A stretch of 64,000 bases of DNA, taken from sequence record MN013077.1; one strand, 5' to 3'. This document shows positions 6,528-28,370 of the stretch, one piece after another. How positions within the stretch are numbered: the stretch's first letter is position 1; each line of letters begins with the position of its first letter. The notes under the pieces are model-generated. The model was not told the origin of the DNA. It searched no databases and saw nothing but the letters and a program-made list of their open reading frames with translations. A program made the translations under genes and the position numbers. This DNA is from Klebsiella phage vB_KaeM_KaOmega.

Positions 6528-6555
6528 TTGACTTATCAGATGGCCCATATATAAT
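6528..6555 (+). promoter_or_regulatory. sigma70-like promoter (TTGACT-N16-TATAAT) for MoxR gene
   Basis: TTGACT at ~6528 and TATAAT at ~6550 upstream of SD AAAGAGGAG and ATG 6588. Confidence 0.55.
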
Positions 6556-6587
6556 GGGCCTCATTGACAACAAAGAGGAGAAATTCA

Positions 6588-16032: not shown

Positions 16033-16308
16033 CTCCAGAATAGCGGGCAGGTCCGGTGATTGTCTCCGGGTCAATTCTCCCCGCTATGTGTATAATATAA
16101 CCCAGGCCCGGCCCGGTGGCAAGCGTCTTTACAGTTCTTTACAAAACTATTTTAGGCGAACTACCGGCGATCCACCTTCCGACCTGGCCCCGGTGCCCGG
16201 TACGTTAGCCCCGCCTTTTCGCCGTGGGGTGGCGTCTCCTCTCCTGTATGTGTACATTATGCACCAGGCCAGCCGGGCCGTCAATACCAAAATCAAAATA
16301 AATTTTTC

Positions 16309-16337
16309 TTGACCCACCAGGCCAGCCGGGCCACAAT
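16309..16337 (+). promoter_or_regulatory. sigma70-like promoter TTGACC-N17-CACAAT with GC-rich spacer (GGCCAGCCGGGCC)
   Basis: Precedes SD AAAAGGAGA and ATG 16368; the spacer motif CACCAGGCCAGCCGGGCC also occurs at 16262. Confidence 0.45.
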
Positions 16338-16708: not shown

Positions 16709-16737
16709 TTGACGGGGCCGACGATAGGCCCCATAAT
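16709..16737 (+). promoter_or_regulatory. hairpin-spacer sigma70 promoter (TTGACG-GGGGCC gacgat GGCCCC-ATAAT)
   Basis: -35 TTGACG and -10 CATAAT 17 nt apart; spacer folds as a 6-bp GC hairpin. Archetype of about 20 copies. Confidence 0.65.
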
Positions 16738-16789
16738 TAACCACATAGCGACGCACACCGCGCCGCACTAACAAAGAGAGACCGTCATC

Positions 16790-17227
16790 ATGTTACATTC
16801 AATCAATAAAGAGCAAAAACTGTACGTCCTGAAGTGTGGCAACGGCTTTACCTGCTATGGGTTCGAAGTGCTGGACACAAACGCCCGCAAGGTTAAACAG
16901 TGGTTAGAATCTGAAGGTGCAACAGTCGAGGATCTCCCATATCGCAAGGGCACAAAGAAGCATTATAAAGCCTGTCAAGATATGATCGCCGCTGGTTGTG
17001 CTTATCATGCCAGAACGGGCAAACGCTGCCTTGCTGGACTCACCAAACAATTAAAGGGCCTGGAGGGTCGCCGGGTAGAGGTTGTCACCATGTACGGCGA
17101 AAAACGCCGCTTTATTGTGGGCCGTTCTACTGGCTGGATGCCTGCCCACTTAGAGATCGCCCGCGTCAACAGTAGCGGCGGCATGAGTGCAGAGCAGGAA
17201 TATAAATCTGTAACTATCGTAAAATAA
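16790..17227 (+). CDS. cassette ORF, hypothetical protein
   Basis: 145 aa; conserved TIR AAAGAGAGACCGTCATCATG. Confidence 0.55.
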   Translation: MLHSINKEQKLYVLKCGNGFTCYGFEVLDTNARKVKQWLESEGATVEDLPYRKGTKKHYKACQDMIAAGCAYHARTGKRCLAGLTKQLKGLEGRRVEVVTMYGEKRRFIVGRSTGWMPAHLEIARVNSSGGMSAEQEYKSVTIVK

Positions 17228-17230
17228 ACG

Positions 17231-17259
17231 TTGACACCGGGGCCACCTAGCCCCATAAT
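17231..17259 (+). promoter_or_regulatory. hairpin-spacer sigma70 promoter
   Basis: TTGACA-CCGGGGCC acctag CCCC-ATAAT. Confidence 0.6.
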
Positions 17260-17309
17260 ACAAACAAGCCCGGCAAATGGTGCCCGGCAAAATCAGAGAG
17301 TAAAAGAAA

Positions 17310-17531
17310 ATGGCTAAAGTAACCTATAAAAAATCACGTGGCGTTTCCTCTGTTAACCTGGCGGCGGTTGTAACCCTGCCCGCATACCGTACCCGTGACG
17401 AGGCGCGCGCCGTTGCCAGTAAGATCCGCGCCGCTGGCGTGACCCCGACAACGCCAACCAAAACGGCGGACGGCTGGCGAGTTACCGCAAAGCATAACGG
17501 CGGCACACTTTCCCGCAACACTCACCGCTAA
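17310..17531 (+). CDS. cassette ORF, hypothetical protein
   Basis: 73 aa; Ala/Thr-rich. Confidence 0.5.
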   Translation: MAKVTYKKSRGVSSVNLAAVVTLPAYRTRDEARAVASKIRAAGVTPTTPTKTADGWRVTAKHNGGTLSRNTHR

Positions 17532-17540
17532 CCAATTGCA

Positions 17541-17560
17541 GGCCCCCGGCGGGGGCCTTT
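17541..17560 (+). terminator. GC hairpin terminator (weak U-tract)
   Basis: GGCCCCC-GGC-GGGGGCC followed by TTTC. Confidence 0.45.
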
Positions 17561-17577
17561 CGTGTGGAGTCAGTAAC

Positions 17578-17922
17578 ATGACCAAACAGATCTACCATGT
17601 ACCGATCACGCCGCTTTTCCGTTGTCATATCTTTTATGACTGTAATGATCTTGCGGGGCAATGGATCGGCGATACCGATCAACAATATGATTTCCCGGAA
17701 TGGGACGAACTAAACCGCCGTGTAAGCAACGCCGCACACAATGCCGATCCTGATAGCCTGGCGGACGTGGAACACTTCCCCGGCGGGGCCGCTTGTTTTC
17801 CTTATATTGAGATCACCGCGCCAACGTGGGCGCTATGTAAAGCGATGGGCGACGCCGTGATCCGTTGCATCCTGGACAATGGCGGGATCGTCGAACCAAA
17901 AGACAACGGAATAAATATTTAA
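17578..17922 (+). CDS. cassette ORF, hypothetical protein
   Basis: ATG 17578 after GGAG (track ORF starts with TTG at 17536); 114 aa. Confidence 0.5.
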   Translation: MTKQIYHVPITPLFRCHIFYDCNDLAGQWIGDTDQQYDFPEWDELNRRVSNAAHNADPDSLADVEHFPGGAACFPYIEITAPTWALCKAMGDAVIRCILDNGGIVEPKDNGINI

Positions 17923-17941
17923 ATTATTTTCGTTTTAGGGG

Positions 17942-17970
17942 TTGACGCCCGGCGGCGTTACCCTCATAAT
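17942..17970 (+). promoter_or_regulatory. hairpin-spacer sigma70 promoter
   Basis: TTGACG-CCCGGCGGCG ttaccct-CATAAT. Confidence 0.55.
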
Positions 17971-18022
17971 GTATCACATAGGGCGACGGAATAACCCGCC
18001 GCCAAAACCAAAAGGTAACAGT

Positions 18023-18262
18023 ATGCAAACCGTAATGATTAGCCACCCGGATCACGCTTCAGACTTCTACGCCCCGATTTACGCGCCGCTTGAATGGCAA
18101 CGCGCCGGACTGCAAAAAACCGCCACGGGCTACGGCACAAAGATCCCGACGTCCTACATGTTGGACTATCAAGGCAAGCGCCGCCGGATCTACGTTGACC
18201 AGTACAGCAACAGCGGCCACACTTACATAATGATCAAAGGCGAAAAAATTACGGTCTGCTAA
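18023..18262 (+). CDS. cassette ORF, hypothetical protein
   Basis: ATG 18023 after AAAAGGTAACAGT (track ORF 17942 runs through the promoter); 79 aa. Confidence 0.5.
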   Translation: MQTVMISHPDHASDFYAPIYAPLEWQRAGLQKTATGYGTKIPTSYMLDYQGKRRRIYVDQYSNSGHTYIMIKGEKITVC

Positions 18263-18271
18263 AAATAATTG

Positions 18272-18301
18272 TTGACCAGGGGCCGGGTTAGGCCCCATAA
18301 T
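18272..18301 (+). promoter_or_regulatory. hairpin-spacer sigma70 promoter
   Basis: TTGACC-AGGGGCC gggtta GGCCCC-ATAAT. Confidence 0.6.
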
Positions 18302-18333
18302 ACCAGACATACCAAACAAACGAGGCTTTAAAA

Positions 18334-18564
18334 ATGAATCTGACTACTATCGGCGCTAACCAAACTATGATCACCCTGGCAAATGGCGCACAGGTTTTCT
18401 TTTCCTACAATACCCCGGTTGCGGCATACCTGCCCGGCGAGGGCTACTTGGTGACCGCCACAAAGCACAGCGCCACCACCTCAAAGCATGTTAACGCTTG
18501 GGCTGGCAAAGGTTGCGAGACCCGCCCACAGGAATTTTTTGATAATCTGATTAAATCCGCTTGA
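18334..18564 (+). CDS. cassette ORF, hypothetical protein
   Basis: 76 aa. Confidence 0.5.
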   Translation: MNLTTIGANQTMITLANGAQVFFSYNTPVAAYLPGEGYLVTATKHSATTSKHVNAWAGKGCETRPQEFFDNLIKSA

Positions 18565-18590
18565 CGTTGGTTTATGCTGGGGTATATAAT
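18561..18590 (+). promoter_or_regulatory. sigma70 promoter TTGACG-N18-TATAAT
   Basis: TTGACGTTGGTTTATGCTGGGGTATATAAT. Confidence 0.55.
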
Positions 18591-18642
18591 CCCCGGCATA
18601 GGCAAGCGAAAGCAAACAACCAAACCGAAAGGATAGTAAACG

Positions 18643-19023
18643 ATGAACATTATCAACACTGTAAACGCTAACGAAATCAAAGAAATTTCCGTAACTGGTA
18701 AACGTTGGTTCCAACGTAGCGCCGGGAACACTTACCACAGTGTAAGCCTGGCGGCGCTGGTATCCGTAGAAGTGGCGGACCGTTTAGGCGCTAACCAATA
18801 CGGAAACAAGTCCGGCGACGTGTGGATCGACCTGGCTTATGTTGGTTTCGCTTATGGGTATGAGCGCGGATTTGAACAAACCGCATTAAGTGCAATGATC
18901 GAGGCGGTGAAGGATTCCCCGGCGGCGTGGCGTAAAATGGTTTACGCTTGCCAGGCGGCGGCGGATCTGGGGGTTGTTTACACTGATAACGTTTACGACG
19001 TAAGCCGCAAAAAAGATTTATAA
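18643..19023 (+). CDS. cassette ORF, hypothetical protein
   Basis: 126 aa; SD AAAGGATAG. Confidence 0.55.
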   Translation: MNIINTVNANEIKEISVTGKRWFQRSAGNTYHSVSLAALVSVEVADRLGANQYGNKSGDVWIDLAYVGFAYGYERGFEQTALSAMIEAVKDSPAAWRKMVYACQAAADLGVVYTDNVYDVSRKKDL

Positions 19024-19029
19024 TTGTGG

Positions 19030-19059
19030 TTGACACGGGGCCGGGTTAGGCCCCATAAT
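19030..19059 (+). promoter_or_regulatory. hairpin-spacer sigma70 promoter
   Basis: TTGACA-CGGGGCC gggtta GGCCCC-ATAAT. Confidence 0.6.
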
Positions 19060-19091
19060 ACCCGCACACCAACAGAAAAGAGATTCACACC

Positions 19092-19301
19092 ATGATCAAC
19101 GAACAGCAAGTAAACGACGTTAAACATGAGGCTTACCAGGTGGCGATCCGTAGCGGTTCCCGCGCCGCCTTTAATCTGGTTGTTGAGTTGTACCCAGAGC
19201 AGGCGCAAAATATCTTGATGCAGGTATCCGTTTTACTGGAGGCGACAAAGCACACCAAATTAAGCGCCGGGATCGACCGCCTCGCAAATAGTTTAAAATA
19301 G
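19092..19301 (+). CDS. cassette ORF, hypothetical protein
   Basis: 69 aa. Confidence 0.5.
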   Translation: MINEQQVNDVKHEAYQVAIRSGSRAAFNLVVELYPEQAQNILMQVSVLLEATKHTKLSAGIDRLANSLK

Positions 19302-19304
19302 TTG

Positions 19305-19333
19305 TTGACATCGGGGCCACCCGGCCCCATAAT
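19305..19333 (+). promoter_or_regulatory. hairpin-spacer sigma70 promoter
   Basis: TTGACA-TCGGGGCC accc GGCCCC-ATAAT. Confidence 0.6.
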
Positions 19334-19383
19334 CTGATACATAGCGACGCACAACGCGCCGCACAAAATAGAGAGACCGTAAA

Positions 19384-19749
19384 ATGACTACTTCCACCAA
19401 AAACACCGCCGCTACTGCCGCCGTTCGCGCTTACGTTGTATCTGTTATCGACTTTGAAGGCACCGACGCCGAAAAGCTGAAATTTTTCTTTGATACCCTG
19501 CAATCTGAATACGGGCACGAGGTTAGCCGCTTGGGTCCACAACGCGCCATCACGGAATATCTTCGCGGCCTGCCGTCGTCAATCAATCATGCTTTTATGA
19601 ATCATGAGATCCTTGATCTTTTGTCTGAATGGGGTTACATTCATTTCCACACCACAGCAGCCCAGGAAGAATGGGAGTTAGATCAGTATTGGACACGTTT
19701 GGCGGGTTCTCTGATTATTCAGGCACGTAAGCACGGGGTGATTGAATGA
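19384..19749 (+). CDS. cassette ORF, hypothetical protein
   Basis: 121 aa; TIR AGAGAGACCGTAAAATG. Confidence 0.55.
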   Translation: MTTSTKNTAATAAVRAYVVSVIDFEGTDAEKLKFFFDTLQSEYGHEVSRLGPQRAITEYLRGLPSSINHAFMNHEILDLLSEWGYIHFHTTAAQEEWELDQYWTRLAGSLIIQARKHGVIE

Positions 19750-20060
19750 TTACAGTTCTAACCTTGATCGGGTTAGCGGCGGCGGCGCTGTACTGCGTCG
19801 CCACTTACAAGGCGTCAGTTTGGCGGAAGGGTCAAAAAATGTACGGCTATTTTGAATATGAGTACAAAGGGGAGAAGGGATCAAGCCGGGACTATGGCGC
19901 GATGTTAGAGATCGATATGGTTGGCGCTATGAATTATCGCCAGGAGTTAGGCGCGGCGATCACTTATGAAGTTTATGATCCCTCAGAAGAGAAGATCGGG
20001 GAGATAATTGATCAACGTTACTATATGGAACAGCAACAAAACAAACGCCGGAGAAAATGA
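19746..20060 (+). CDS. hypothetical protein with N-terminal TM helix
   Basis: 104 aa; ATGA overlap; MITVLTLIGLAAAALYCVATY is hydrophobic. Confidence 0.5.
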   Translation: MITVLTLIGLAAAALYCVATYKASVWRKGQKMYGYFEYEYKGEKGSSRDYGAMLEIDMVGAMNYRQELGAAITYEVYDPSEEKIGEIIDQRYYMEQQQNKRRRK

Positions 20061-20197
20061 GAATGATTCACACTAATATTAACCGCGATAAACAACCGCG
20101 CCGCGCCCGTCTCTCATATGCTGAAGCAGGCGAGCGCCTGCAACGTGAGAAGGCCAACAAACAACAGCGCCGTAAAACGCGCTATAACTGGGAGTAA
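20057..20197 (+). CDS. putative 46-aa basic peptide
   Basis: ATGA overlap; Arg/Lys-rich (QPRRARLSYAEAGERLQREKANKQQRRKTRYNWE); precedes a terminator. Confidence 0.3.
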   Translation: MRMIHTNINRDKQPRRARLSYAEAGERLQREKANKQQRRKTRYNWE

Positions 20198-20243
20198 CCG
20201 CCCCCGGCATGGAAACACCAGGCCAAACCGTTTAAACCGCACA

Positions 20244-20269
20244 GGGGGCCGCTTAGGCCCCTTATTTTT
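20244..20269 (+). terminator. rho-independent terminator
   Basis: GGGGCC-gctta-GGCCCC followed by TTATTTTTG. Confidence 0.65.
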
Positions 20270-20286
20270 GATCTACGGGGTACACA

Positions 20287-20514
20287 ATGCAAAACCTTTA
20301 CAGCATGACCGAATTTATCCGATTGTTAGCAGGTCGCCCGATGGGGTTTACCTGCCTTTACCTGGTAACCGACGGCAAAGGCTATCGTATAACGTCCAAA
20401 TCATTAGCCGCCATTGCAGCGCGGGAAGGGGTGAAGATCTCCACCTCCCAGGCGCTGATTGTGGACCCGGCGACCGTGGCGACGATTGAGGCGATCCGGG
20501 TTACCGTAAAATAA
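20287..20514 (+). CDS. hypothetical protein
   Basis: 75 aa; no cassette promoter directly upstream. Confidence 0.4.
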   Translation: MQNLYSMTEFIRLLAGRPMGFTCLYLVTDGKGYRITSKSLAAIAAREGVKISTSQALIVDPATVATIEAIRVTVK

Positions 20515-20538
20515 TTTAAAATATTTTCATCCTGGGGC

Positions 20539-20567
20539 TTGACGTCCGGCCCCGGTTCCCCCATAAT
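20539..20567 (+). promoter_or_regulatory. hairpin-spacer sigma70 promoter
   Basis: TTGACG-TCCGGCCCCGGTTCCCC-CATAAT. Confidence 0.55.
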
Positions 20568-20617
20568 CTAACCCATAGCGACGCACACCGCGCCGCACAA
20601 ACAAAAGAGAGACCGTT

Positions 20618-21034
20618 ATGACTTCCCCAATTTTCCGTATCAAATCAGGCTTATCGGCTTACGCATTATCTTGCGGTTACTTCCAGCGTATCGAGTCAGA
20701 GATCACCGGGGAAGATATCCGGGTTGACCTTTGGCATGAGTCGGGCCACTTCCACGCCCGCGCCCACAATTTTACAACCTCCACTCGGATCGAATGGGTA
20801 ACAGAAAGTAACCTTGACGACGCCCGCACACAATGGGCCGCGCTTGTCAAACAAATTTTTGGCGACGTGATCCGCACCATTAAAAAGGATAAGCGCTACA
20901 CCGTAAACCGTGAGTTTGCCGGAGAGTCATCACCCGCTTATGTGACCCGCTTTTGTGGCGAATGGGTATCAAACAGCGATACCGCGCCCGGCGCATGGGT
21001 AAAAGCCGCCGAACACAACGCCGAAAGAATTTAA
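20618..21034 (+). CDS. cassette ORF, hypothetical protein
   Basis: 138 aa; TIR AAAAGAGAGACCGTTATG. Confidence 0.55.
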   Translation: MTSPIFRIKSGLSAYALSCGYFQRIESEITGEDIRVDLWHESGHFHARAHNFTTSTRIEWVTESNLDDARTQWAALVKQIFGDVIRTIKKDKRYTVNREFAGESSPAYVTRFCGEWVSNSDTAPGAWVKAAEHNAERI

Positions 21035-21043
21035 AAATAATTG

Positions 21044-21072
21044 TTGACGGGGCCGACGATAGGCCCCATAAT
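21044..21072 (+). promoter_or_regulatory. hairpin-spacer sigma70 promoter (identical core to 16709)
   Basis: TTGACG-GGGCC gacgat AGGCCCC-ATAAT. Confidence 0.65.
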
Positions 21073-21103
21073 ACCCACAGATAAGCAAACCGGAGTTAGA
21101 CCA

Positions 21104-21256
21104 ATGAAACATTATCTTGTAAACATTCCTGGCGTGGCTGGCCCGCTTAAAGTTTTCGGCTATGATGAACAGGACGCAAGAAAGCGCCTACGTGATCGGG
21201 AAGGTTTCGGATCACGCCTCCCACGGGGCACAAAATTTTATTTGCAAAACGCTTGA
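21104..21256 (+). CDS. cassette ORF, 50-aa hypothetical protein
   Basis: ATG 21104 (MKHYLVNIPG...) after GGAG; track ORF 21041 starts inside the promoter. Confidence 0.45.
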   Translation: MKHYLVNIPGVAGPLKVFGYDEQDARKRLRDREGFGSRLPRGTKFYLQNA

Positions 21257-21282
21257 CGTGTGGTTATGCCGTCCCTTACAAT
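21253..21282 (+). promoter_or_regulatory. sigma70 promoter TTGACG-N18-TACAAT with hairpin GCCGTC..GACGGC
   Basis: TTGACGTGTGGTTATGCCGTCCCTTACAATGACGGCAT. Confidence 0.5.
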
Positions 21283-21334
21283 GACGGCATAGACAAACGA
21301 AAGCAAACCAGACAACCAAACGAGGGTTACAATT

Positions 21335-21586
21335 ATGTTTGAAGTATTCGCCGGAATGTGTTTTTATGCTGCCGCCGCTTTAAAACAGTGTGATGATTAC
21401 ACCGTTGAAGCATACGATGATCAATTAACGTGTGAGATCGTCGCCAATGGCTACCGTCAGGACCCGCGCTGGATTAACCCGGCTTGCATACCGGGGCCGG
21501 AAGTGGAAGCAATGCCGGAGGGTGATCCGTGGCTTGAACCTGTACCGCCTGCCGATCATTTCAATGTTAACCCGGCACAAAAATAA
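21335..21586 (+). CDS. cassette ORF, hypothetical protein
   Basis: 83 aa. Confidence 0.5.
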   Translation: MFEVFAGMCFYAAAALKQCDDYTVEAYDDQLTCEIVANGYRQDPRWINPACIPGPEVEAMPEGDPWLEPVPPADHFNVNPAQK

Positions 21587-21589
21587 TTG

Positions 21590-21617
21590 TTGACGTGTGG
21601 TTATAGGTCTGTATAAT
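21590..21617 (+). promoter_or_regulatory. sigma70 promoter TTGACG-N16-TATAAT
   Basis: TTGACGTGTGGTTATAGGTCTGTATAAT. Confidence 0.55.
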
Positions 21618-21660
21618 GCGGACCTATAGACAAACGAAACGCCACCAAACGAGGCACAAA

Positions 21661-22020
21661 ATGAAATCATACGCTGAAGCTATCGCCACCCGTCCCGATC
21701 TCCTGGTAAAGGGTGATCTATTCCTTACGCTGGAGACTTTCGATTTTTCCCGTGATATCAACGGCAATACGATCAACAAATATCGCGCCGCGCTTGTCTC
21801 AGGCGACGAACAAAGCGTTTTAAACTGGTACGCCGCCGCCAATGAGCTGGAGATCCTCAAATCACCTTATCGCCGTGAACAGTCCCATAATGACGGCGCA
21901 AGCGCCGCCCTTTATCGCTTGGGCTTGCTGGGGTACGAACTGGAATACATTACCACACAATACGGCCCCGGCAAGCGCCGCGCCTATCGAATTTTCTACC
22001 GTGTAAAGAATGCAAAATAA
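21661..22020 (+). CDS. cassette ORF, hypothetical protein
   Basis: ATG 21661 after AACGAGGCACAAA (track ORF 21616 over-extended); 119 aa. Confidence 0.5.
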   Translation: MKSYAEAIATRPDLLVKGDLFLTLETFDFSRDINGNTINKYRAALVSGDEQSVLNWYAAANELEILKSPYRREQSHNDGASAALYRLGLLGYELEYITTQYGPGKRRAYRIFYRVKNAK

Positions 22021-22023
22021 GTA

Positions 22024-22052
22024 TTGACCAGGGGCCGGAAAGGCCCCATAAT
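22024..22052 (+). promoter_or_regulatory. hairpin-spacer sigma70 promoter
   Basis: TTGACC-AGGGGCC ggaa AGGCCCC-ATAAT. Confidence 0.6.
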
Positions 22053-22088
22053 ACCAGACATACCCAAACAGGCATAAGAGGCCACAAA

Positions 22089-22268
22089 ATGAAATCATCT
22101 TTACTTTTCGCCCTGGTTGACATCGTGATCGGCAACGGTTGCGGGCAACATACTTTCATAGCTAACCGCCCCTATCCGCTGAAGTCATTGCAGGCCGACG
22201 CCCGCCTAACCGCCGGGCAGATCCGCCGCTACTTTCGTGAACCACACCCGGCAAAAAGTGCAAAATAA
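22089..22268 (+). CDS. cassette ORF, 59-aa hypothetical protein
   Basis: ATG 22089 after TAAGAGGCCACAAA; below the track cutoff. Confidence 0.4.
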   Translation: MKSSLLFALVDIVIGNGCGQHTFIANRPYPLKSLQADARLTAGQIRRYFREPHPAKSAK

Positions 22269-22271
22269 TTG

Positions 22272-22301
22272 TTGACGCCGGGCACCGTCCCGGCTTACAA
22301 T
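22272..22301 (+). promoter_or_regulatory. hairpin-spacer sigma70 promoter (TACAAT -10)
   Basis: TTGACG-CCGGGCACCGTCCCGGCT-TACAAT. Confidence 0.55.
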
Positions 22302-22330
22302 GACCTCACACAAACAAACGAGGCTATAAC

Positions 22331-22627
22331 ATGCAACAGGCTAACACTCTTTTCATTCTGGCAAACGTAGCGGATCACGTCGTGGCTTCATTGTCTAACG
22401 TGGCGGGCACCGTCCAGATCATTTGCCGCCATATGGATGACAAAGCGCCGAACCGCTTACAAATCAACGTAGACCGCGCCGGGAAAGAATTTGTGATCTC
22501 TTATGACGCTATCTACAACGGCAAGCGGATCACGCAAGCAAAAAGCCAGCCTATCCCCGGCGATTTTGTCCAGGACGTGATCGCCGATATCGTAAACGAC
22601 ACGATCCCAGCGGGGGCCGCTGTATGA
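22331..22627 (+). CDS. cassette ORF, hypothetical protein
   Basis: 98 aa. Confidence 0.5.
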   Translation: MQQANTLFILANVADHVVASLSNVAGTVQIICRHMDDKAPNRLQINVDRAGKEFVISYDAIYNGKRITQAKSQPIPGDFVQDVIADIVNDTIPAGAAV

Positions 22628-22779
22628 ATCCGCATAAACTTTTAATCACCAGCTACACCAGCAAGGCGGATCGCCGTGAAACTTTGGACCGCTTAACCCG
22701 CTATTATCAGGAGGCCGGGCACAATAAGACAACCGCCCGCGCCCTGGCTAAAAAACGTTTACGTTTTGGTAAAAATTAG
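22624..22779 (+). CDS. putative 51-aa basic protein
   Basis: ATGA overlap; MNPHKLLITSYTSKADRRETLDRLTRYY... Confidence 0.3.
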   Translation: MNPHKLLITSYTSKADRRETLDRLTRYYQEAGHNKTTARALAKKRLRFGKN

Positions 22780-22780
22780 C

Positions 22781-22809
22781 TTGACGCCCGGCCCGAAAGG
22801 GCCGATAAT
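22781..22809 (+). promoter_or_regulatory. hairpin-spacer sigma70 promoter (GATAAT -10)
   Basis: TTGACG-CCCGGCCC gaaa GGGCC-GATAAT. Confidence 0.6.
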
Positions 22810-22861
22810 CTCTCACATAGGGCGGGGAATGGTTCCCCGCATTATCTAAGAGGTTATGAAC

Positions 22862-23014
22862 ATGTTTACTTTGATGACTTGGGAACACGAATCAAGCGCC
22901 CCGATCCGCCGGACCTTTGAAAACTTATGCGCTGCTTATCGCCTGGCGCAAGGCGGTTACTATAAAGCCCAAATCATCGACGAAAACAATATTGTAATGT
23001 ACGAATTTAAATGA
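22862..23014 (+). CDS. cassette ORF, 50-aa hypothetical protein
   Basis: ATG 22862 with TAAGAGG SD 8 nt upstream; the leader holds the CATAGGGCGGGGAATGGTTCCCCGC hairpin. Confidence 0.4.
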   Translation: MFTLMTWEHESSAPIRRTFENLCAAYRLAQGGYYKAQIIDENNIVMYEFK

Positions 23015-23043
23015 TTGACATCCGGCCCGAAAGGGCCGATAAT
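23015..23043 (+). promoter_or_regulatory. hairpin-spacer sigma70 promoter (GATAAT -10)
   Basis: TTGACA-TCCGGCCC gaaa GGGCC-GATAAT. Confidence 0.6.
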
Positions 23044-23076
23044 GACCCCCACACCAAACAAAAGAGAGACCGTAAA

Positions 23077-23283
23077 ATGATTACTATGATTCTGCAAAAG
23101 TCCCGCCTGATTGATGTTACCGTCACCCTGTCCGCTTGCGGTGAATCATCCCGCCGGGCCGATCATTACCAGGTTACCGCTGTAAGCGACAACGGCGCGA
23201 TCCTGCTGTCTGAGGCGACCCCCGCGCTACATGAGGCATTTTTGACTTATTCGAAGTGGAAAGGGCCGGAAGAAATAAAATAA
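23077..23283 (+). CDS. cassette ORF, hypothetical protein
   Basis: ATG 23077 after AAAAGAGAGACCGTAAA; 68 aa. Confidence 0.5.
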   Translation: MITMILQKSRLIDVTVTLSACGESSRRADHYQVTAVSDNGAILLSEATPALHEAFLTYSKWKGPEEIK

Positions 23284-23290
23284 AAAGTAG

Positions 23291-23319
23291 TTGACGGCGG
23301 GGCCGATAGGCCCCATAAT
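23291..23319 (+). promoter_or_regulatory. hairpin-spacer sigma70 promoter
   Basis: TTGACG-GCGGGGCC gat AGGCCCC-ATAAT. Confidence 0.6.
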
Positions 23320-23353
23320 ACCACCACACCAAACGAATAAAGAGAATCACAAA

Positions 23354-23608
23354 ATGTTAAAATTCATCAAATCACTTTTCACCCGTACCGCCCCGGCTTG
23401 CAAGTTGCCACCCCTGGAGGCGAAAGGTGTGATCGCTCGCAAAGTCTCAGAATTGTTTATCATTTCATTGGTTCACAATGGCGGCGACTGTTACGAAATC
23501 ATCGAAATGGGCCGCTACACTAAAACAGGATCAAGCCGTGTCCGCTACGGTGAACACCGCGCCCGGAATCATTTTGATTCTGTATGCTGTATGGTCGGTG
23601 CAAAATAA
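23354..23608 (+). CDS. cassette ORF, hypothetical protein
   Basis: ATG 23354 (MLKFIKSLF...); 84 aa. Confidence 0.5.
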   Translation: MLKFIKSLFTRTAPACKLPPLEAKGVIARKVSELFIISLVHNGGDCYEIIEMGRYTKTGSSRVRYGEHRARNHFDSVCCMVGAK

Positions 23609-23611
23609 ACC

Positions 23612-23640
23612 TTGACGGGGCCAACGTTAGGCCCCATAAT
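23612..23640 (+). promoter_or_regulatory. hairpin-spacer sigma70 promoter
   Basis: TTGACG-GGGCC aacgtt AGGCCCC-ATAAT. Confidence 0.6.
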
Positions 23641-23690
23641 GTATCACACAGGGCGACACAACGCCGCCCACAAACAAAAGGCAGACCGTT

Positions 23691-24053
23691 ATGATCTTCA
23701 ATATCACCGAACTGAAAAAGAAAATGTCAGAGATGCTCTTCAATATTAGTGAATACGGGCACCCGTCCTACACTATCTTTGAGGCTGTTTTGTCAAAGTG
23801 CCAAAAGTTCGAATTAGTGATCGAGGTTGTACCGGGTCGCCTCCTGAAGTTGGGATCTGGCAAGTGGGGTTATAAACTTGATGCCTACGTCCAACAGTTA
23901 GCCGCCGGGGCCGATCCTATGGCAGATGATTATTGCGATGATGCCGACACTATCGCAAGCGTGGACGGTGAATATTGCCGGACAAAGGCGGCGCTTTTTG
24001 AAGCGATCAGCGAAGTTATCAACGAAGCAAAAGAAAACGTAATAACACGATAA
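23691..24053 (+). CDS. cassette ORF, hypothetical acidic protein
   Basis: 120 aa; TIR AAAAGGCAGACCGTTATG. Confidence 0.55.
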   Translation: MIFNITELKKKMSEMLFNISEYGHPSYTIFEAVLSKCQKFELVIEVVPGRLLKLGSGKWGYKLDAYVQQLAAGADPMADDYCDDADTIASVDGEYCRTKAALFEAISEVINEAKENVITR

Positions 24054-24067
24054 GCTAAAAAGAATTG

Positions 24068-24097
24068 TTGACGCCGGGAAGCGTTACGGGTTATACT
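24068..24097 (+). promoter_or_regulatory. sigma70 promoter TTGACG-N18-TATACT
   Basis: TTGACGCCGGGAAGCGTTACGGGTTATACT. Confidence 0.45.
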
Positions 24098-24145
24098 CTT
24101 TTCATCGGGTCACAACAGACCACAACAAACAAAGAGAGAAACAAA

Positions 24146-24223
24146 ATGAGCGTAATCTTCCTAGTATCTGTTTTCGTAGCTATTGCATCTTCTACCGCAA
24201 TTTGTATCAAACTGGGATACTAA
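24146..24223 (+). CDS. putative 25-aa hydrophobic peptide
   Basis: Own promoter and AAAGAGAGAAACAAA SD; MSVIFLVSVFVAIASSTAICIKLGY. Confidence 0.3.
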   Translation: MSVIFLVSVFVAIASSTAICIKLGY

Positions 24224-24227
24224 TTAA

Positions 24228-24620
24228 ATGACTACTTTCAACGTTTTACACTTAAACGCTTTTATCGCGGGTTACATTGAGGCAATGTTTTTTGCAGAGT
24301 CCGCCACCGATAGCGACGGCGAAGAGATCGAAAGTTTAGCCGGGTATGAGTTAAGCGCTGAAGCCCTGGACGCTGCCCGCATGGATTGTGCCCGCTTTAT
24401 GGACGTTGCGCCTCTGTTACTCAAAGGGGCAATGCTGGCAGGGGTTGACTATGACCACACCCAGGCGGGCCGGGATCTATGGTTTAGCCGTCAAGGGCAC
24501 GGCGTAGGATTCTGGGATCGCGGACTTGGGGCGATCGGTGATAAACTCCACGACGTGGCGAAGACTTTCGGATCAAAAAATCTGTTTATCAATGATGCCG
24601 GATTTATTGAGGTAGAATAA
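24228..24620 (+). CDS. hypothetical protein
   Basis: 130 aa. Confidence 0.5.
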   Translation: MTTFNVLHLNAFIAGYIEAMFFAESATDSDGEEIESLAGYELSAEALDAARMDCARFMDVAPLLLKGAMLAGVDYDHTQAGRDLWFSRQGHGVGFWDRGLGAIGDKLHDVAKTFGSKNLFINDAGFIEVE

Positions 24621-25081
24621 TGAACCTTACAGATCTGAAGTATTACGACGAATTGACCCCAGCGGCGCAAGCTGAAGCCCGGCGCAACGTTGCCGCTAGT
24701 GTGCAGACTCACCACGGGCGGGAAATCGGAAAGGCGTTTTTTAAATTCCAGCGGGACCCAAACAAGGCGATCAATGACCCGCTGCACATCCGCCGGATCA
24801 TCAATGGCGGCGAAGCGTGGCGCAAGATCCGCCAGGAGGGCGACGCCTATCTAATCCGCTTTATCCGGTCCAATAAAGTGATCTTTACTGATTGCGGGGC
24901 GTATGTAGCGTATGTGGACGCCTTCACAATGTTTATTGATGGGTTGGAATACATACCCACAGCCGAACAGCAAAAGACTCTTAGAACGCCTTACATCGAC
25001 GTTAACGGGCGGGGGCCTGCGTTTCATGATTGGCTATACCGTATGCACCACAAAATAAAGTTTTTCATGATCCGGGGTTGA
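24620..25081 (+). CDS. hypothetical protein
   Basis: 153 aa; TAATG junction. Confidence 0.5.
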   Translation: MNLTDLKYYDELTPAAQAEARRNVAASVQTHHGREIGKAFFKFQRDPNKAINDPLHIRRIINGGEAWRKIRQEGDAYLIRFIRSNKVIFTDCGAYVAYVDAFTMFIDGLEYIPTAEQQKTLRTPYIDVNGRGPAFHDWLYRMHHKIKFFMIRG

Positions 25082-25106
25082 CACCCGGCGGAATAGGGCC
25101 GATAAT
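25078..25106 (+). promoter_or_regulatory. hairpin-spacer sigma70 promoter (GATAAT -10)
   Basis: TTGACA-CCCGGCGGAATAGGGCC-GATAAT, followed by leader CATAGGGCGGGGAATGGTCCCCG. Confidence 0.55.
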
Positions 25107-25159
25107 GTCTCTCATAGGGCGGGGAATGGTCCCCGGCCCAATGAACTGGAGTCAGTACA

Positions 25160-25411
25160 ATGGAAATCAAACACGTAATTTCTGCAAACGTCGCCGTTTT
25201 AGGTTCTGTAAGTGAAACCCGTGTGAGTCTGGCGAAATGGTGCGCCGCTCAAACTTTCGGGAGTTACGGCGAAAAGGTAACAGAGGTTAAGCGCTTGCTT
25301 TCCTTTGGCAACGTGGGCCGCAAGTTGTTAACAGAGGATATCGCCCGCCGGGTTGAGATCCATTATTCACTTGCTCAAATCATCGTAAAAGAGATCGAAA
25401 GCGCAATTTAA
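25160..25411 (+). CDS. cassette ORF, hypothetical protein
   Basis: 83 aa; SD GGAG. Confidence 0.5.
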   Translation: MEIKHVISANVAVLGSVSETRVSLAKWCAAQTFGSYGEKVTEVKRLLSFGNVGRKLLTEDIARRVEIHYSLAQIIVKEIESAI

Positions 25412-25449
25412 CCCGGCCCGGCCCCGAAAGGGGCCAAAAGGAAAATAAA

Positions 25450-25629
25450 ATGACTTATTTCAGAAACTTAGAAAACGGGCATTATTACACCATATCCGCC
25501 GGGCGGGTTCGTTGGTGGCTGGATCATTCTGCCGTGTGGGTCCGTAGTGAACATCTAAAGCCGTGTGACCTTGCCCACTATCCGTATATTGGAACCACCA
25601 CCGGACCAGGGGCCGAAAATGGGCGCTAA
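25450..25629 (+). CDS. putative 59-aa protein
   Basis: AAAAGGAAAATAAA SD; follows the GGCCCCGAAAGGGGCC hairpin. Confidence 0.35.
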   Translation: MTYFRNLENGHYYTISAGRVRWWLDHSAVWVRSEHLKPCDLAHYPYIGTTTGPGAENGR

Positions 25630-25843
25630 TACCCGCAACCGCTACGGCATAACGCGCCGTTTCGGGGTCTGCTATATGCTGGCAGATGATCCACAATACA
25701 GGGCATTGCTGGAGGCTTACCAGGTCACCAAACTGGACGCCCAAAAGGGCCGGGCCGAACATGCCGCCCACGTAGCGAACATCAAAGCGTTACACGAATT
25801 TTTAGCCGTCGCTGAAAAGCGCCACGACATCCGCCACCGTTGA
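25619..25843 (+). CDS. hypothetical protein
   Basis: ATG 25619 (MGANTRNRYG...); track ORF 25565 over-extended. Confidence 0.45.
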   Translation: MGANTRNRYGITRRFGVCYMLADDPQYRALLEAYQVTKLDAQKGRAEHAAHVANIKALHEFLAVAEKRHDIRHR

Positions 25844-25854
25844 GAGTGCAAACC

Positions 25855-26049
25855 ATGATCACAGAATCCGAGATCCGCCAAACGTTAGCCGCCTTGCGTT
25901 ACCTCCACGCCTTGCGCCGGGCAAGTGATCCGACTTATGCCGGGTCATGCCTGGCTAACGATGCCGAAAACGGGATCGCCACACTGAAAGAATTAAACGA
26001 CCGCATGAGCGACAGCGACCGATCCGACTTCATAGGGGGCGAAATATGA
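25855..26049 (+). CDS. hypothetical protein
   Basis: ATG 25855 after GAGAG; 64 aa. Confidence 0.45.
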   Translation: MITESEIRQTLAALRYLHALRRASDPTYAGSCLANDAENGIATLKELNDRMSDSDRSDFIGGEI

Positions 26050-26246
26050 TCGACTTATCCGGCGTGAAGCCTGGCGATCTGGTCTGGGCCTTTGACTATC
26101 CGACCGATCCACCGTATGACGTTTGCAACGCTTGCAAACTGGAGTATTTGAACACCGGGAAAAATGAGTACCAGTTACGCCGCCCGGATAACGGCGTGAT
26201 CGTTTACTTTCGCTACATCGCACCAATTGAAGGGGCCAAACCATGA
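26046..26246 (+). CDS. hypothetical protein
   Basis: 66 aa; ATGA overlap. Confidence 0.45.
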   Translation: MIDLSGVKPGDLVWAFDYPTDPPYDVCNACKLEYLNTGKNEYQLRRPDNGVIVYFRYIAPIEGAKP

Positions 26247-26557
26247 TCGCCATTACGCCAACCGTTTTAGATTGGTATCGCCAACAGATCGCGCCGCCGC
26301 TGGCTATCTTCAAACAGGCAGAAAGCAAACAGCGCCGGATCTCCATTCATGAGATCATCACCCTTAACGCCGGGGCGGTCCCGTTCAATCCTGGGGCGGG
26401 TCGCAACATGGGCAACACGTTAGCGCTTTTGAGTTTACGCCGGAAACGGTCCGCCCTTACCTTGGATTCACTCCGCATGATGGGAGATCCGCACCGGGTA
26501 ACAGGTCGCCGGATCGCCAGGGCCTGGGAACGGGCAAACGGTCGAAAGGTTGTATAA
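26243..26557 (+). CDS. hypothetical protein
   Basis: 104 aa; ATGA overlap; followed by a terminator. Confidence 0.5.
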   Translation: MIAITPTVLDWYRQQIAPPLAIFKQAESKQRRISIHEIITLNAGAVPFNPGAGRNMGNTLALLSLRRKRSALTLDSLRMMGDPHRVTGRRIARAWERANGRKVV

Positions 26558-26572
26558 AATAACAGTGTTTAC

Positions 26573-26606
26573 AGGGGTTGAATTGTTCGCCCCTTTTTGT
26601 TATCCT
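26573..26606 (+). terminator. rho-independent terminator (imperfect stem, strong U-tract)
   Basis: GGGGTTGAA-ttg-TTCGCCCC followed by TTTTTGTTATCCTTTTTT. Confidence 0.55.
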
Positions 26607-26699
26607 TTTTTCATGCGATGGCACCTGATGCAGGGGGAGACAAACACCGGACCTGCCCGCTATTCAGGAAGGCGGACCGGACCTGGGTCTCTCCGGATA

Positions 26700-26722
26700 G
26701 ATGAGAATGGTTATCATTCCCA
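26700..26722. promoter_or_regulatory. operator-like site GATGAGAATGGTTATCATTCCC
   Basis: Contains the ATGAGAAT half-site plus ATCATTCCC; related to the sites at 15958, 16016 and 29276. Confidence 0.35.
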
Positions 26723-26975
26723 ATCAAATCAAATACATACTTTCAAACCGTTGTCAAATTTATTTCGTACTCCTGTATAAATGTACATGGTTCTAAAACG
26801 TCCTGAATCGCGTTTTAAGCCGTTTTCCCCTTACCCGGTATCCTACATCATAAAAATATAGATCTCTCGAAATCGGACTTTCGCACTTTTTGCCCTTGCA
26901 AACGTAAAAATTTTATGTTAGACCTGAAGGGCTGAAAGCCGGGTTTACGTTGACAAAACTTTACAATTCTCCCTA

Positions 26976-27003
26976 TTGCATCGATCCGCCATTGTGCTAT
27001 TAT
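26976..27003 (+). promoter_or_regulatory. sigma70-like promoter TTGCAT-N16-TATTAT
   Basis: Upstream of leader CACGTAGGGCGGC...AGAGGAGACAGTAAAAATG (start 27057). Confidence 0.4.
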
Positions 27004-27056
27004 TTATCACGTAGGGCGGCAATGACGCGACGGCCCGCAGAGAGGAGACAGTAAAA

Positions 27057-27428
27057 ATGAACCTGACCAACTTCAACCGCTACTACATCCGCGACGAACA
27101 GGCAAACGCTTTTGGGTACGATCGTTCGTTCGAAATGCAACAGCACGTAGGCGGCGCAAAGTTACACGTTGAAACTGTTACCTTTGAAAACTATTTTATG
27201 GCGACCTTTGACAATGGTTTACAGATCTCCATTGAGTACAAAGGCGGCGTGATGACTCTCGCCACTGAGGATAAATTCCGCAAAAAAGATCTTTTGAATC
27301 ATCCAGGTTTTGCCAGCAACAAAGAATTATTGATTAAAATTTATATCCGCTGGGTAGTGGGCCGCATCGCAACAGAAGAGCAGATCGCCGCCCTGGTGGA
27401 TCTGGCTCTGAATCTGGATTTAAATTAA
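27057..27428 (+). CDS. cassette ORF, hypothetical protein
   Basis: 123 aa; SD AGAGGAGA. Confidence 0.55.
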   Translation: MNLTNFNRYYIRDEQANAFGYDRSFEMQQHVGGAKLHVETVTFENYFMATFDNGLQISIEYKGGVMTLATEDKFRKKDLLNHPGFASNKELLIKIYIRWVVGRIATEEQIAALVDLALNLDLN

Positions 27429-27431
27429 TAG

Positions 27432-27460
27432 TTGACAAGGGGCCGGAAAGGCCCCATAAT
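27432..27460 (+). promoter_or_regulatory. hairpin-spacer sigma70 promoter
   Basis: TTGACA-AGGGGCC ggaa AGGCCCC-ATAAT (identical to the core at 22024). Confidence 0.6.
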
Positions 27461-27505
27461 ACCCACTCAAGCAACAAACCACTAAGAACACTGGAGACCG
27501 TAAAA

Positions 27506-27820
27506 ATGACCAAATCTAAATTTTTCGAAATGCTGGATCGCTACCTGTCAAGCCATAACGAGTGGGCCAAACTTGGCAACGGTTACGACTCATACAAGGC
27601 CGAACAGTTAAAACCTTATGTTTTCCATGAGGACCCGGCGAACCTGGAGAAATGGAAAGCTAAAGATCCGTCCTATCCTTGGACCGCTCACGCTTCAGGT
27701 TTTACCCTGGCTGATTGTTGGCATGTTGAGGTAATGCAACATAAAACCGCTGAAGCGGCAGAAAAGCAAAACAAAATTTTCACCCGCTGGATCGCAGACT
27801 ATCAAAAGGCCCGCGCTTAA
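27506..27820 (+). CDS. cassette ORF, hypothetical protein
   Basis: 104 aa; TIR CTGGAGACCGTAAAAATG. Confidence 0.55.
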   Translation: MTKSKFFEMLDRYLSSHNEWAKLGNGYDSYKAEQLKPYVFHEDPANLEKWKAKDPSYPWTAHASGFTLADCWHVEVMQHKTAEAAEKQNKIFTRWIADYQKARA

Positions 27821-28065
27821 TGTCCCGGCTTTTTAAAATCAATCTTCCATTGTGGGCCGCTTTAGCGGTCCTCATTGCCTTTTTTGGCGATACGGTCAAC
27901 AATTGGATTTTGTCCGCTGTACTTGGACCGGATCAACTGGTCACAACATTTTTAAACGCTTTCGGCGCTACACTGGCAACGGCCCGCCTTGCCTATCGTG
28001 GCAAATCAATAAACCGTTATGATCTGGCGCTATCACTGCCCGCCCTGGTTACCTGCCTAAACTGA
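27820..28065 (+). CDS. small membrane protein
   Basis: 81 aa; two hydrophobic helices (LPLWAALAVLIAFFG; LVTTFLNAFGATLATARLAY). Confidence 0.5.
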   Translation: MSRLFKINLPLWAALAVLIAFFGDTVNNWILSAVLGPDQLVTTFLNAFGATLATARLAYRGKSINRYDLALSLPALVTCLN

Positions 28066-28069
28066 AGAG

Positions 28070-28094
28070 GCCCGCCACCCCGGCGGGCTTTTTG
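28070..28094 (+). terminator. rho-independent terminator
   Basis: GCCCGCC-acccc-GGCGGGC followed by TTTTTG. Confidence 0.7.
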
Positions 28095-28123
28095 TTGCAT
28101 CCAGATCCGTGACCTGTTATAAT
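28095..28123 (+). promoter_or_regulatory. sigma70 promoter TTGCAT-N17-TATAAT
   Basis: TTGCATCCAGATCCGTGACCTGTTATAAT; TIR CTGGAGACCGTAAAACATG. Confidence 0.5.
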
Positions 28124-28169
28124 ACTTACTCACCCGGCAACCGGGCCAAACAACTGGAGACCGTAAAAC

Positions 28170-28370
28170 ATGACAACCGCCAACCGCCTGATCGATGTTC
28201 TGAATGATGCAAAGGCAAACCGTTTAGCCGTGGCAATCAAAGAAGAGGCAAACGGGCTGATCCTGGCAAGTGTTACCGATGGCTGTTACACTGAATCATT
28301 CCATGCTGATACACTGGAGTATCTCGCCCACAGATTAGAAATGATCGTTGACGATTGGCGGCTATTGTGA
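28170..28370 (+). CDS. cassette ORF, hypothetical protein
   Basis: 66 aa; last ORF of the plus-strand array. Confidence 0.5.
   Translation: MTTANRLIDVLNDAKANRLAVAIKEEANGLILASVTDGCYTESFHADTLEYLAHRLEMIVDDWRLL

Follow-up and report, generated by a model that had tools for sequence, protein, structure and literature searches.

In a 64,000-nucleotide stretch of Klebsiella phage vB_KaeM_KaOmega (MN013077.1; hereafter the window), roughly 23 small ORFan cassettes are arrayed in about 12 kb on the + strand, and about a third of them carry a conserved GC hairpin at the predicted start of the transcript. This hairpin is one part of a modular leader that follows a near-consensus sigma-70 promoter and ends in a translation initiation region (TIR) shared between unrelated genes. 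The best explanation for these observations, to which we give a probability of about 0.55, is a leader whose 5'-end hairpin acts in cis and whose modules recombine with one another.

By sequence similarity the window belongs to a Certrevirus-like phage (subfamily Vequintavirinae; rV5-like), and Certrevirus is the genus of every region-matching phage with a recorded taxonomy. The early region of the window (about 16.3–28.2 kb, + strand; 11.9 kb) matches Enterobacter phage SS-2025 (96.6%), vB_ExiM_F1M1E (90.8%) and Cronobacter phage PBES02 (87.7%), and in addition Pectobacterium phages phiTE and CB7 and Cronobacter phages CR3, CR8, and CR9. Coverage of the region by these relatives is patchy (30–89%), and the early region is therefore a mosaic. 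Leaders, ortholog groups, and homology breakpoints were compared among the window and ten relatives, 11 phages in all.

Leader hairpins of the early cassettes

The promoters preceding the cassettes are readily recognized. Exact matches to TTGAC-N15-20-ATAAT number 21 against 0.83 expected, and a scan for the sigma-70 consensus returned 39 sites against 16.4 expected, of which the 20 best (scores of 10–11 of 12) all lie on the + strand between 16.3 and 27.5 kb. An unbiased repeat search also returned families corresponding to the promoter, to the promoter with leader, and to the TIR. Upstream of the cassette promoters is an AT-rich stretch holding the stop codon of the preceding gene, and in repeat families D1–D3 and D8 the −35 element is preceded by AAAATAATTG. 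The spacer between −35 and −10 may contain a stem of its own (GGGGCC/GGCCCC, GGCCC/GGGCC, or CCGGG/CCCGG; −10 to −15 kcal/mol), and at 18561, 21253, and 21590 the stem embraces the −10 hexamer instead.

An initial annotation of this DNA had described two classes of leader, A and B, downstream of the −10 element. We recover these motifs at the sites given, at a fixed distance past the promoter and ahead of unrelated ORFan genes. The class A core, CATAGCGACGCACACCGCGCCGCAC, is present at all three sites proposed, 16744–16768, 19340–19364, and 20574–20598 (+ strand), with a single mismatch in the loop of the second copy, and is found in none of the dinucleotide shuffles. At the first site the predicted transcription start site (TSS) is A16745, and the hairpin (16748–16766) consists of three base pairs, an A.C mismatch, and three further base pairs capped by the loop ACACC. 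The hairpin of the second copy (19344–19362) has the loop ACAAC, and that of the third spans 20578–20596. The corresponding early promoters, all on the + strand, are located at 16709–16737 (145-aa ORF cassette; GC hairpin in the spacer, TTGAC-GGGGCCGACGATAGGCCCC-ATAAT), 19305–19333 (121-aa ORF cassette; spacer hairpin), and 20539–20567 (138-aa ORF cassette; weak spacer hairpin), where ORF denotes an open reading frame.

Of five class B sites proposed, four carry the sequence CAYAGGGCG exactly (17977, 22816, 23647, and 25113), whereas the fifth, at 27010, is a degenerate copy with one mismatch (CGTAGGGCG) and a weak hairpin. The bare 9-mer is no more frequent than chance when one mismatch is allowed (23 found, 22 expected), so the class B signal is positional: genuine copies lie 6–7 nucleotides past the −10 hexamer and are followed by the hairpin. 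The promoter and class B leader at 17942–18003 (+) contain CATAGGGCG at 17977 and a hairpin at 17982–18003 (GGCGACGG/CCGCCGCC) with an A.C mismatch, and those at 22781–22840 (+) contain CATAGGGCG at 22816 and a hairpin at 22822–22840 (GCGGGGAA/TTCCCCGC). At 23612–23693 (+) the promoter is followed by CACAGGGCG at 23647, a hairpin at 23651–23669 (GGGCGAC/GCCGCCC), and a variant, AAAAGGCAGACCGTTATG, of the TIR type called T1 below. At 25078–25162 (+) it is followed by CATAGGGCG at 25113, a hairpin at 25117–25139 (−20.6 kcal/mol for the leader), and the TIR CTGGAGTCAGTACAATG. The degenerate leader (27010–27059, +) has a TIR, GAGAGGAGACAGTAAAAATG, resembling type T1 and precedes a homolog of T4 gp30.7.

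The two classes share a single frame, which consists of CATAG, a 7-bp stem strand, a 5-nucleotide loop, the opposing 7-bp strand, and CACAAACAAAAGAGAGAYCGTWAAATG, and by their sequences they are alleles of one hairpin submodule. The GC-rich hairpins of this submodule have 7–10 bp, and the loops are ACACC, ACAAC, or AATAAC. The order of the complete module is CATAG, the GC hairpin, a U-poor and unstructured CA-rich spacer, and AGAGAGACCGT-N(1-5)-ATG. Across the 30 nucleotides before promoter-proximal start codons the composition is 44% A, 29% C, 19% G, and 9% T, compared with 22% T in the region.

Transcription starts prefer a purine after a pyrimidine, 7–8 nucleotides past the −10 hexamer. Since 6–7 nucleotides separate this hexamer from CA(T/C)AG, the A of CATAG is the likely TSS, as predicted from promoter geometry; a literature search for mapped TSSs in Vequintavirus found none. 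When folded from this A, seven of the eight class A and B leaders form a hairpin beginning at nucleotide 4–6, with minimum free energies (MFEs) of −8.4 to −20.6 kcal/mol and z-scores of −1.3 to −3.0. The exception is the degenerate class B leader at 27011, which pairs from nucleotide 1 (−8.8 kcal/mol, z = −0.4). The remainder of each class A or B leader is unstructured, and leaders without a hairpin fold at about 0 kcal/mol.

The proposal that early transcripts begin with one or the other of these classes proved too narrow, because classes A and B together account for only eight of the 23 promoter-proximal genes. Among the others, the three cassettes with the −10 in a hairpin loop continue with ATAGRCAAACGAAAGC (18561, 21253, and 21590), two have other 5' hairpins (17268–17288 and 28133–28145), and the remaining cassettes have hairpin-less, CA-rich leaders. 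The first of these other hairpins (−11.1 kcal/mol) is located with its promoter at 17231–17312 (+) and is conserved in 11 of 11 phages. The second, CCCGGCAACCGGG, follows the promoter TTGCAT-N17-TATAAT at 28095–28172 (+).

In specific gene families the predicted hairpin has been conserved, and its place is fixed. Its presence or absence is fixed for each family in all 11 phages, even through swaps of class A for class B, and the folding energies fall into eight ortholog groups at −8 to −17 kcal/mol and fourteen at 0 to about −4 kcal/mol. Of eight changes within hairpin types, about seven are in loop or mismatch positions. In an alignment of 12 distinct cores with the 7-5-7 architecture, 85.7% of cells pair versus 69% in shuffles. 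One stem position is GC in five cores, AU in three, GU in one, and A.C in three, and two pairs flip from C-G to G-C between classes A and B. In addition, other stems occupy the same position in distant Vequintavirinae, including SSBI34 (GGGCGAC/GTCGCCC), Hena1 (CCGGGGAA/TTCCCCGG), and rV5 (GGCGGGAA/TTCCCGCC).

Exchange of promoter, leader, and initiation modules

The leader similarity extends well beyond two or three recent duplicates. In the 11 phages, class A is present in 20 copies ahead of nine unrelated ortholog groups, with an almost invariant 23-nucleotide core and variable flanks. Within the window, the genes following class A (16790, 19384, and 20618) and class B leaders fall in different BLASTP groups, and ten ORFs tested against PHROGs belong to different families of function unknown to PHROG, or to none.

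Orthologous genes may carry different leader classes, as is the case in ortholog groups OG6, OG9, and OG18/26. The gene at 20618 (OG9) has class A in six phages and class B in phiTE, CB7, PBES02, and CR3, and the gene at 23691 has class B in most phages and class A in CR3 and CR9. For the gene at 18023 the leader is class B in all phages but CR8, in which a class A hairpin is joined to the usual AAAAGGTAACAGT initiation site. An alignment of the OG9 family reveals two haplotypes of a whole block that begins at the −35 spacer, ends at about codon 7, and is flanked by conserved sequence.

Homology breakpoints, defined as clustered ends of BLAST segments between the window and its ten relatives, coincide with the modules in 28 of 46 clusters, although the modules make up 22% of the sequence (p = 1.4e-8). 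Recurrent junctions lie at TTGAC (17231, 19309, and 27431), at the TIR or start codon (16803, 22085, and 27056), and at 24050. However, BLAST segments naturally end at the edges of replaced ORFs, so this test speaks for replacement cassette by cassette rather than for a particular mechanism of recombination. The sequence comparisons thus reveal submodules that combine differently, precede unrelated genes, differ between orthologs, and coincide with breakpoints. From these mixed combinations, ortholog differences, and breakpoints we infer that homologous recombination between modules shuffles genes and both moves and homogenizes the modules themselves. The suggestion in the initial annotation that the modules are recombination-competent is accordingly supported by the comparison, and the modules are exchangeable.

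In the TIR, the string GAGACCGT occurs six times in 64 kb (16778, 19373, 20609, 23066, 27494, and 28157) compared with 1.76 expected, and all six copies are on the + strand, 2–6 nucleotides ahead of a promoter-proximal start codon. Eight cassettes had been proposed to share this TIR. These six do so exactly, whereas the sites at 23673 (GGCAGACCGTTATG) and 27038 (GGAGACAGTAAAAATG) are variants. Furthermore, this TIR, which we call type T1, is one of about five TIR types, others of which include CAAACGAGG, AAAAGGTAACAGT, and TGGAGTCAGTA. On the + strand, type T1 follows the class A leaders as AAAGAGAGACCGTCATCATG (16773–16792), ATAGAGAGACCGTAAAATG (19368–19386; repeat family D15), and AAAGAGAGACCGTTATG (20603–20620). 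It also follows hairpin-less leaders as AAAGAGAGACCGTAAAATG in the module at 23015–23079, where the leader is CA-rich, and as CTGGAGACCGTAAAAATG in that at 27432–27508 (repeat family D11). The hairpin leader at 28133–28145 is followed by CTGGAGACCGTAAAACATG.

Written as [AG]GAG-WY-CGT-N1-5-ATG, the shared TIR is present in all relatives, each of which has 2–8 copies and most of which have five or more. In SSBI34 every copy has GAGACAGT where Certrevirus mostly has GAGACCGT. The variants are uniform only in the window (all ACCGT) and in SSBI34 (all ACAGT), and we rejected genome-specific variants as a sign of co-evolution with a trans-acting factor, since AC, AT, and TC variants are mixed in most genomes. 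Predicted pairing of the Shine-Dalgarno (SD) sequences with the anti-SD is weak (−3.5 to −6.4 kcal/mol), and a search for extended pairing of ACCGT with the 3' end of 16S RNA found none. We read the shared TIR as a module allele that is probably kept similar by exchange, and its sequence provides no evidence for a trans-acting partner. As to the other types, CAAACGAGG(C/G) precedes four cassettes (18318, 21318, 21647, and 22316), and TGGAGTCAGTA(A)CAATG precedes two unrelated genes (17562–17580 and 25144–25162), one of them internal and following a terminator-like hairpin.

Pattern scans of IMG/VR and metagenomes returned mostly chance matches. The true ones were Certrevirus-like contigs, which carry the same invariant class A core and therefore added little new variation, and a group of T1-like siphoviruses (about 50 kb). 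In the latter, one leader of the form CATAAT-N4-TCACATAGGGCGGCACGGCGTCGCCCAC precedes a 315-aa gene, for example at about 1745–1820 in Escherichia phage vB_EcoS_G29-2 (Drexlerviridae) and in IMG/VR loci L047, L050–L052, L055, and L056. This leader is nearly a class B module, with a G.U pair where Certrevirus has A.C, and could reflect either horizontal spread of the module or convergence.

Possible roles of the leader hairpin

The most likely role of the hairpin, judged from its position and conservation, is cis-acting protection of the mRNA 5' end or tuning of expression. Host RNA polymerase would start at the A of CATAG, so that the mRNA would begin with AUA and the stem and the hairpin would span nucleotides 4–6 to about 22–26. 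There it would restrict access of RppH and RNase E to the 5' end and obstruct RNase E as it scans from 5' to 3'. The hairpin and the low U content of the leader would jointly raise stability or expression, to a level particular to each gene, in about one in three early genes, and the open, CA-rich spacer would leave the weak SD sequence accessible. The scarcity of U is also consistent with leaders that avoid RNase E sites.

RppH is blocked by a stem-loop at the 5' terminus and acts less readily when nucleotide 2 is a pyrimidine (PMC8833179). Structured obstacles shield downstream sites from RNase E scanning, according to the abstract of PMC11194081, and classic 5' stem-loop stabilizers are listed as references 92–95 in PMC3997798. 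Like these stabilizers, the present leaders would place a GC hairpin a few nucleotides from the 5' end, ahead of an unstructured leader and the ribosome-binding site, an arrangement that Emory, Bouvet and Belasco reportedly described in 1992 for the ompA and papA 5' untranslated regions. The present leaders differ from the ompA and papA stabilizers in that the 5' end is predicted, 3–5 nucleotides are unpaired, and an internal A.C mismatch is conserved.

Several observations weigh against this explanation. The TSS, as noted, derives from promoter geometry. The first paired nucleotide is predicted at position 2–6 across leaders, and RppH and RNase E need at least two unpaired 5' nucleotides and prefer at least three (PMC8833179); with a start at the A of CATAG, 3–5 unpaired nucleotides are borderline by this measure and protection would therefore be only partial. 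Single-sequence z-scores are modest. A mismatch, A.C or C.A, is retained in the mRNA-strand stems of types A, B1, B2, and B4 and lowers their stability, and 84.3% of alignment cells pair in the sense orientation versus 97.1% on the minus strand. The conservation of class A includes the loop and exceeds what a generic stabilizer needs. Orthologous TIR sites are no better conserved than third codon positions (0.785 vs 0.818, ungapped), and the tendency of BLAST segments to end at replaced ORFs tempers the breakpoint result. Stems bearing the mismatch in the window are those at 16748–16766, 19344–19362, 20578–20596, 17982–18003, and 23651–23669.

The near-invariance of class A, including loop and mismatch, goes beyond the requirements of a generic hairpin and thus keeps alive another reading, in which the hairpins are sequence-specific sites for a phage or host RNA-binding factor that controls an early-mRNA regulon post-transcriptionally through shut-off, stabilization, or antitermination, by analogy with lambda N/boxB or the targets of T4 RegA/RegB. 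We consider this unlikely. In its favour, the ACACC loop and the A.C mismatch recur with the rest of the core in the nine gene contexts, while flanks and coding third positions diverge around it. Types A, B1, and B4 each contain GCGAC/GCCGC and its mismatch, at distances from the loop that differ, the distance from promoter to hairpin is fixed, and a conserved 46-aa arginine-rich ORF (MRMIHTNINRDKQPRRARLSYAEAGERLQREKANKQQRRKTRYNWE; 20057–20197, +) lies in the same region. However, gene conversion between cassettes can also produce sequence invariance, orthologs tolerate a B leader in place of A, and B3 or A in place of B4, and the unrelated stems of other Vequintavirinae fit conservation of structure better than of sequence. 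Searches of the early ORFs with Pfam and PHROG for a RegA-, RegB-, or N-like regulator or an RNA-binding domain, and of the window with Rfam, identified no candidate. Like lambda boxB, the leaders have a short hairpin with a 5-nucleotide loop near the start of an early transcript and a small arginine-rich ORF nearby, an analogy only. Unlike the nut site, they have no boxA, N homolog, or GNRA-like loop, and bear no relation to multi-gene read-through: on inspection of the cassette lists, hairpin leaders show no link with operon length and hairpin cassettes are mostly monocistronic, for which reason we rejected antitermination acting through operon length.

A narrower version of the same idea, that the hairpins with their A.C pair are identity elements read by a dedicated factor and together form a portable 'regulon tag', is somewhat harder to credit. 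The 46-aa ORF is annotated in relatives (e.g., CB7_133) and belongs to no Pfam family; its arginine-rich product might conceivably bind RNA and could be such a factor. If so, tagged early mRNAs would form a regulon, for example one whose members are jointly shielded from the decay machinery, or handed over to it, during takeover, and the tag would spread between genes, even to T1-like phages. Taken as a whole, the interpretation in the initial annotation, whose observations we confirmed, is partly supported. As to the control by a phage or host factor suggested there, conservation of the hairpin and the near-invariance of class A are compatible with a bound factor, but a role in cis would explain most of the data.

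The better pairing of the minus strand, where each A.C reads as G.U, raises the question of whether the element functions as DNA or on the other strand, as a palindrome at +4 to +22 that resembles an operator, a cruciform, a recombination hotspot, or an antisense or template-strand hairpin. Antisense MFEs are −12.6 to −17.6 kcal/mol compared with −8.4 to −12.8 in the sense orientation, a gain of 4–5 kcal/mol, and repressors commonly bind at the position of the hairpin. Nevertheless such a role is improbable. The early region contains no credible minus-strand promoters and no T-run after a minus-strand hairpin, and on these grounds we also rejected an antisense terminator. The A.C mismatch is confined to two or three independent lineages, and Hena1 and the T1-like siphovirus copy have G.U on the mRNA strand. 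For these reasons we do not take the strand asymmetry as evidence for minus-strand function. The spacing of the half-motifs (5, 9, or 10 nucleotides) and the lengths of stem and loop vary, which argues against a dimeric binder of double-stranded DNA.

It is likewise improbable that the hairpin and the ACCGT of the TIR lack a function of their own and are only by-products of recent duplication, gene conversion, and module swapping. The modules clearly move, the orthologous TIR is conserved no better than synonymous sites, and the uniform GAGACAGT of SSBI34, set against the prevailing GAGACCGT of Certrevirus, is what homogenization predicts. By-products would not be expected, however, to be retained per gene family in all phages through type swaps, to show compensatory pair changes and differing stems at the same position in four genera, or to avoid changes in paired positions. 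We regard as very improbable that the hairpin is an intrinsic terminator or attenuator of upstream read-through, that is, a relocated version of the stem-loops in the promoter-early stem-loop (PeSL) cassettes of T4-type phages, which terminate transcription and occur 'in various positions' (PMC2839356). CACAAAC rather than a U tract follows the hairpin, a terminator scan found no leader hairpin on either strand, and the hairpin would act on transcripts of its own promoter too. The leader hairpin coexists with a strong spacer stem-loop in four cassettes (16709, 19305, 22781, and 23612), which also rules it out as a stand-in for a missing spacer stem-loop.

Neighbouring features and related phage systems

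Few products of the early genes belong to known families. Pfam searches of 30 ORFs left 27 without a family at E<=0.01, the exceptions being a DUF7170 protein (22862–23014), the T4 gp30.7 homolog (27057–27428; PF06919, E = 1.8e-43), and a weak sub-threshold SPOR match; the first two are the only early ORFs above the Pfam curated cut-off. A 126-aa protein (18643–19023) is 92.9% identical to its counterparts in CR3, CR8, PBES02, and P7_Pc and only 72% identical to that of F1M1E, although F1M1E is the nearer relative over the whole region, which indicates mosaicism gene by gene. No tRNA was found in a scan of the window. No Rfam 15 family reached the gathering score in the 64 kb, and between 16 and 29.5 kb the sole match with E<=1 was a chance Trp-leader outside the leaders.

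The left edge of the rightward early array is marked by promoters back to back at 16256–16337 (− strand, 16284–16256; + strand, 16309–16337) with a common inverted CCAGGCCAGCCGGGCC core. Approximately 450 nucleotides without a convincing ORF (26558–27000) separate a terminator-like hairpin (about 26570–26600) from the gp30.7-homolog cassette. Here TTGACAAAACTTTACAATTCTCCCTATTGCAT...TATTAT, a sequence that SSBI34 also has (about 10601), stands where F1M1E has the usual TTGAC promoter.

The promoters with the −10 within a hairpin loop are located at 18561–18600, 21253–21292, and 21590–21628, and also at 6528–6565 (+) and 55745–55710 (−). Their arms covary between copies and phages (GCYGGGG/CCCCGGC, TGCCGTC/GACGGCA, TAGGTC/GACCTA, and, in SSBI34, TGTGGGG/CCCCACA). 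The 3' arm stops at the predicted start (..CATAG), and the hairpin would thus be absent from the promoter's own RNA. These promoters correspond to the PeSL class 'overlapping the -10 box'.

A putative sigma-70-like early promoter, AAAA(N3)TGTTGAC(N19)TATAAT, has been reported in Certrevirus with 13–21 sites in CB7, CR3, CR8, and CR9, mostly among short hypothetical ORFs (Buttimer et al. 2020, PMC7344957). These are the same promoters in the same genus as those examined here. A term search of that paper returned none of the words stem-loop, hairpin, leader, or Shine-Dalgarno, and its searchable text seems to treat the promoter consensus only. The paper also indicates that Certrevirus-type phages lack a phage RNA polymerase, and we therefore take the likeness of CACATAGGG to T7-type promoters (CACTATAGGG) to be chance.

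The closest known system is that of the PeSL mobile cassettes in the T4-type phages RB49/phi1, PST, and nt-1 (Arbiol et al. 2010, PMC2839356; Comeau et al. 2014, PMC4122927). In PeSLs the stem-loop lies over the −10 or separates it from the −35, an SD sequence and ATG form the end, and the cassettes mediate shuffling. Like them, the modules described here are intergenic motifs of about 100 bp in which the preceding gene stops within an AT-rich stretch, the sigma-70 promoter is of consensus type and has a GC stem-loop in either of these positions, and the 3' end carries an SD sequence and ATG. They are clustered among small ORFans, and the motifs delimit the indels or replacements that distinguish related phages. 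In contrast to PeSLs, about a third of the cassettes here add a conserved hairpin after the −10, at the predicted transcript start, and the CA-rich spacer and TIR are shared and behave as separately exchangeable submodules. The lineage is Vequintavirinae, Certrevirus-like, and not Straboviridae, and the modules are therefore the same kind of element as PeSLs rather than the same family by descent. We found no report of PeSLs in Vequintavirinae in the searchable literature, and did not find a prior description of the leader hairpin and shared TIR, which we regard as additional submodules.

With these findings, 'mobile regulatory cassettes' of the PeSL type, described in T4-like phages, also extend to the rV5-like subfamily. 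Because promoter, leader hairpin, and ribosome site each behave as exchangeable units, the modules show how ORFan regions may gain and lose genes and keep their expression signals. If the hairpin is a factor-binding tag, it would define a new early-gene regulon. The hairpin-bearing leaders also provide a compact natural set of modules made up of a strong promoter, leader, and ribosome-binding site, in two presumed expression classes, with potential use as parts for synthetic biology.

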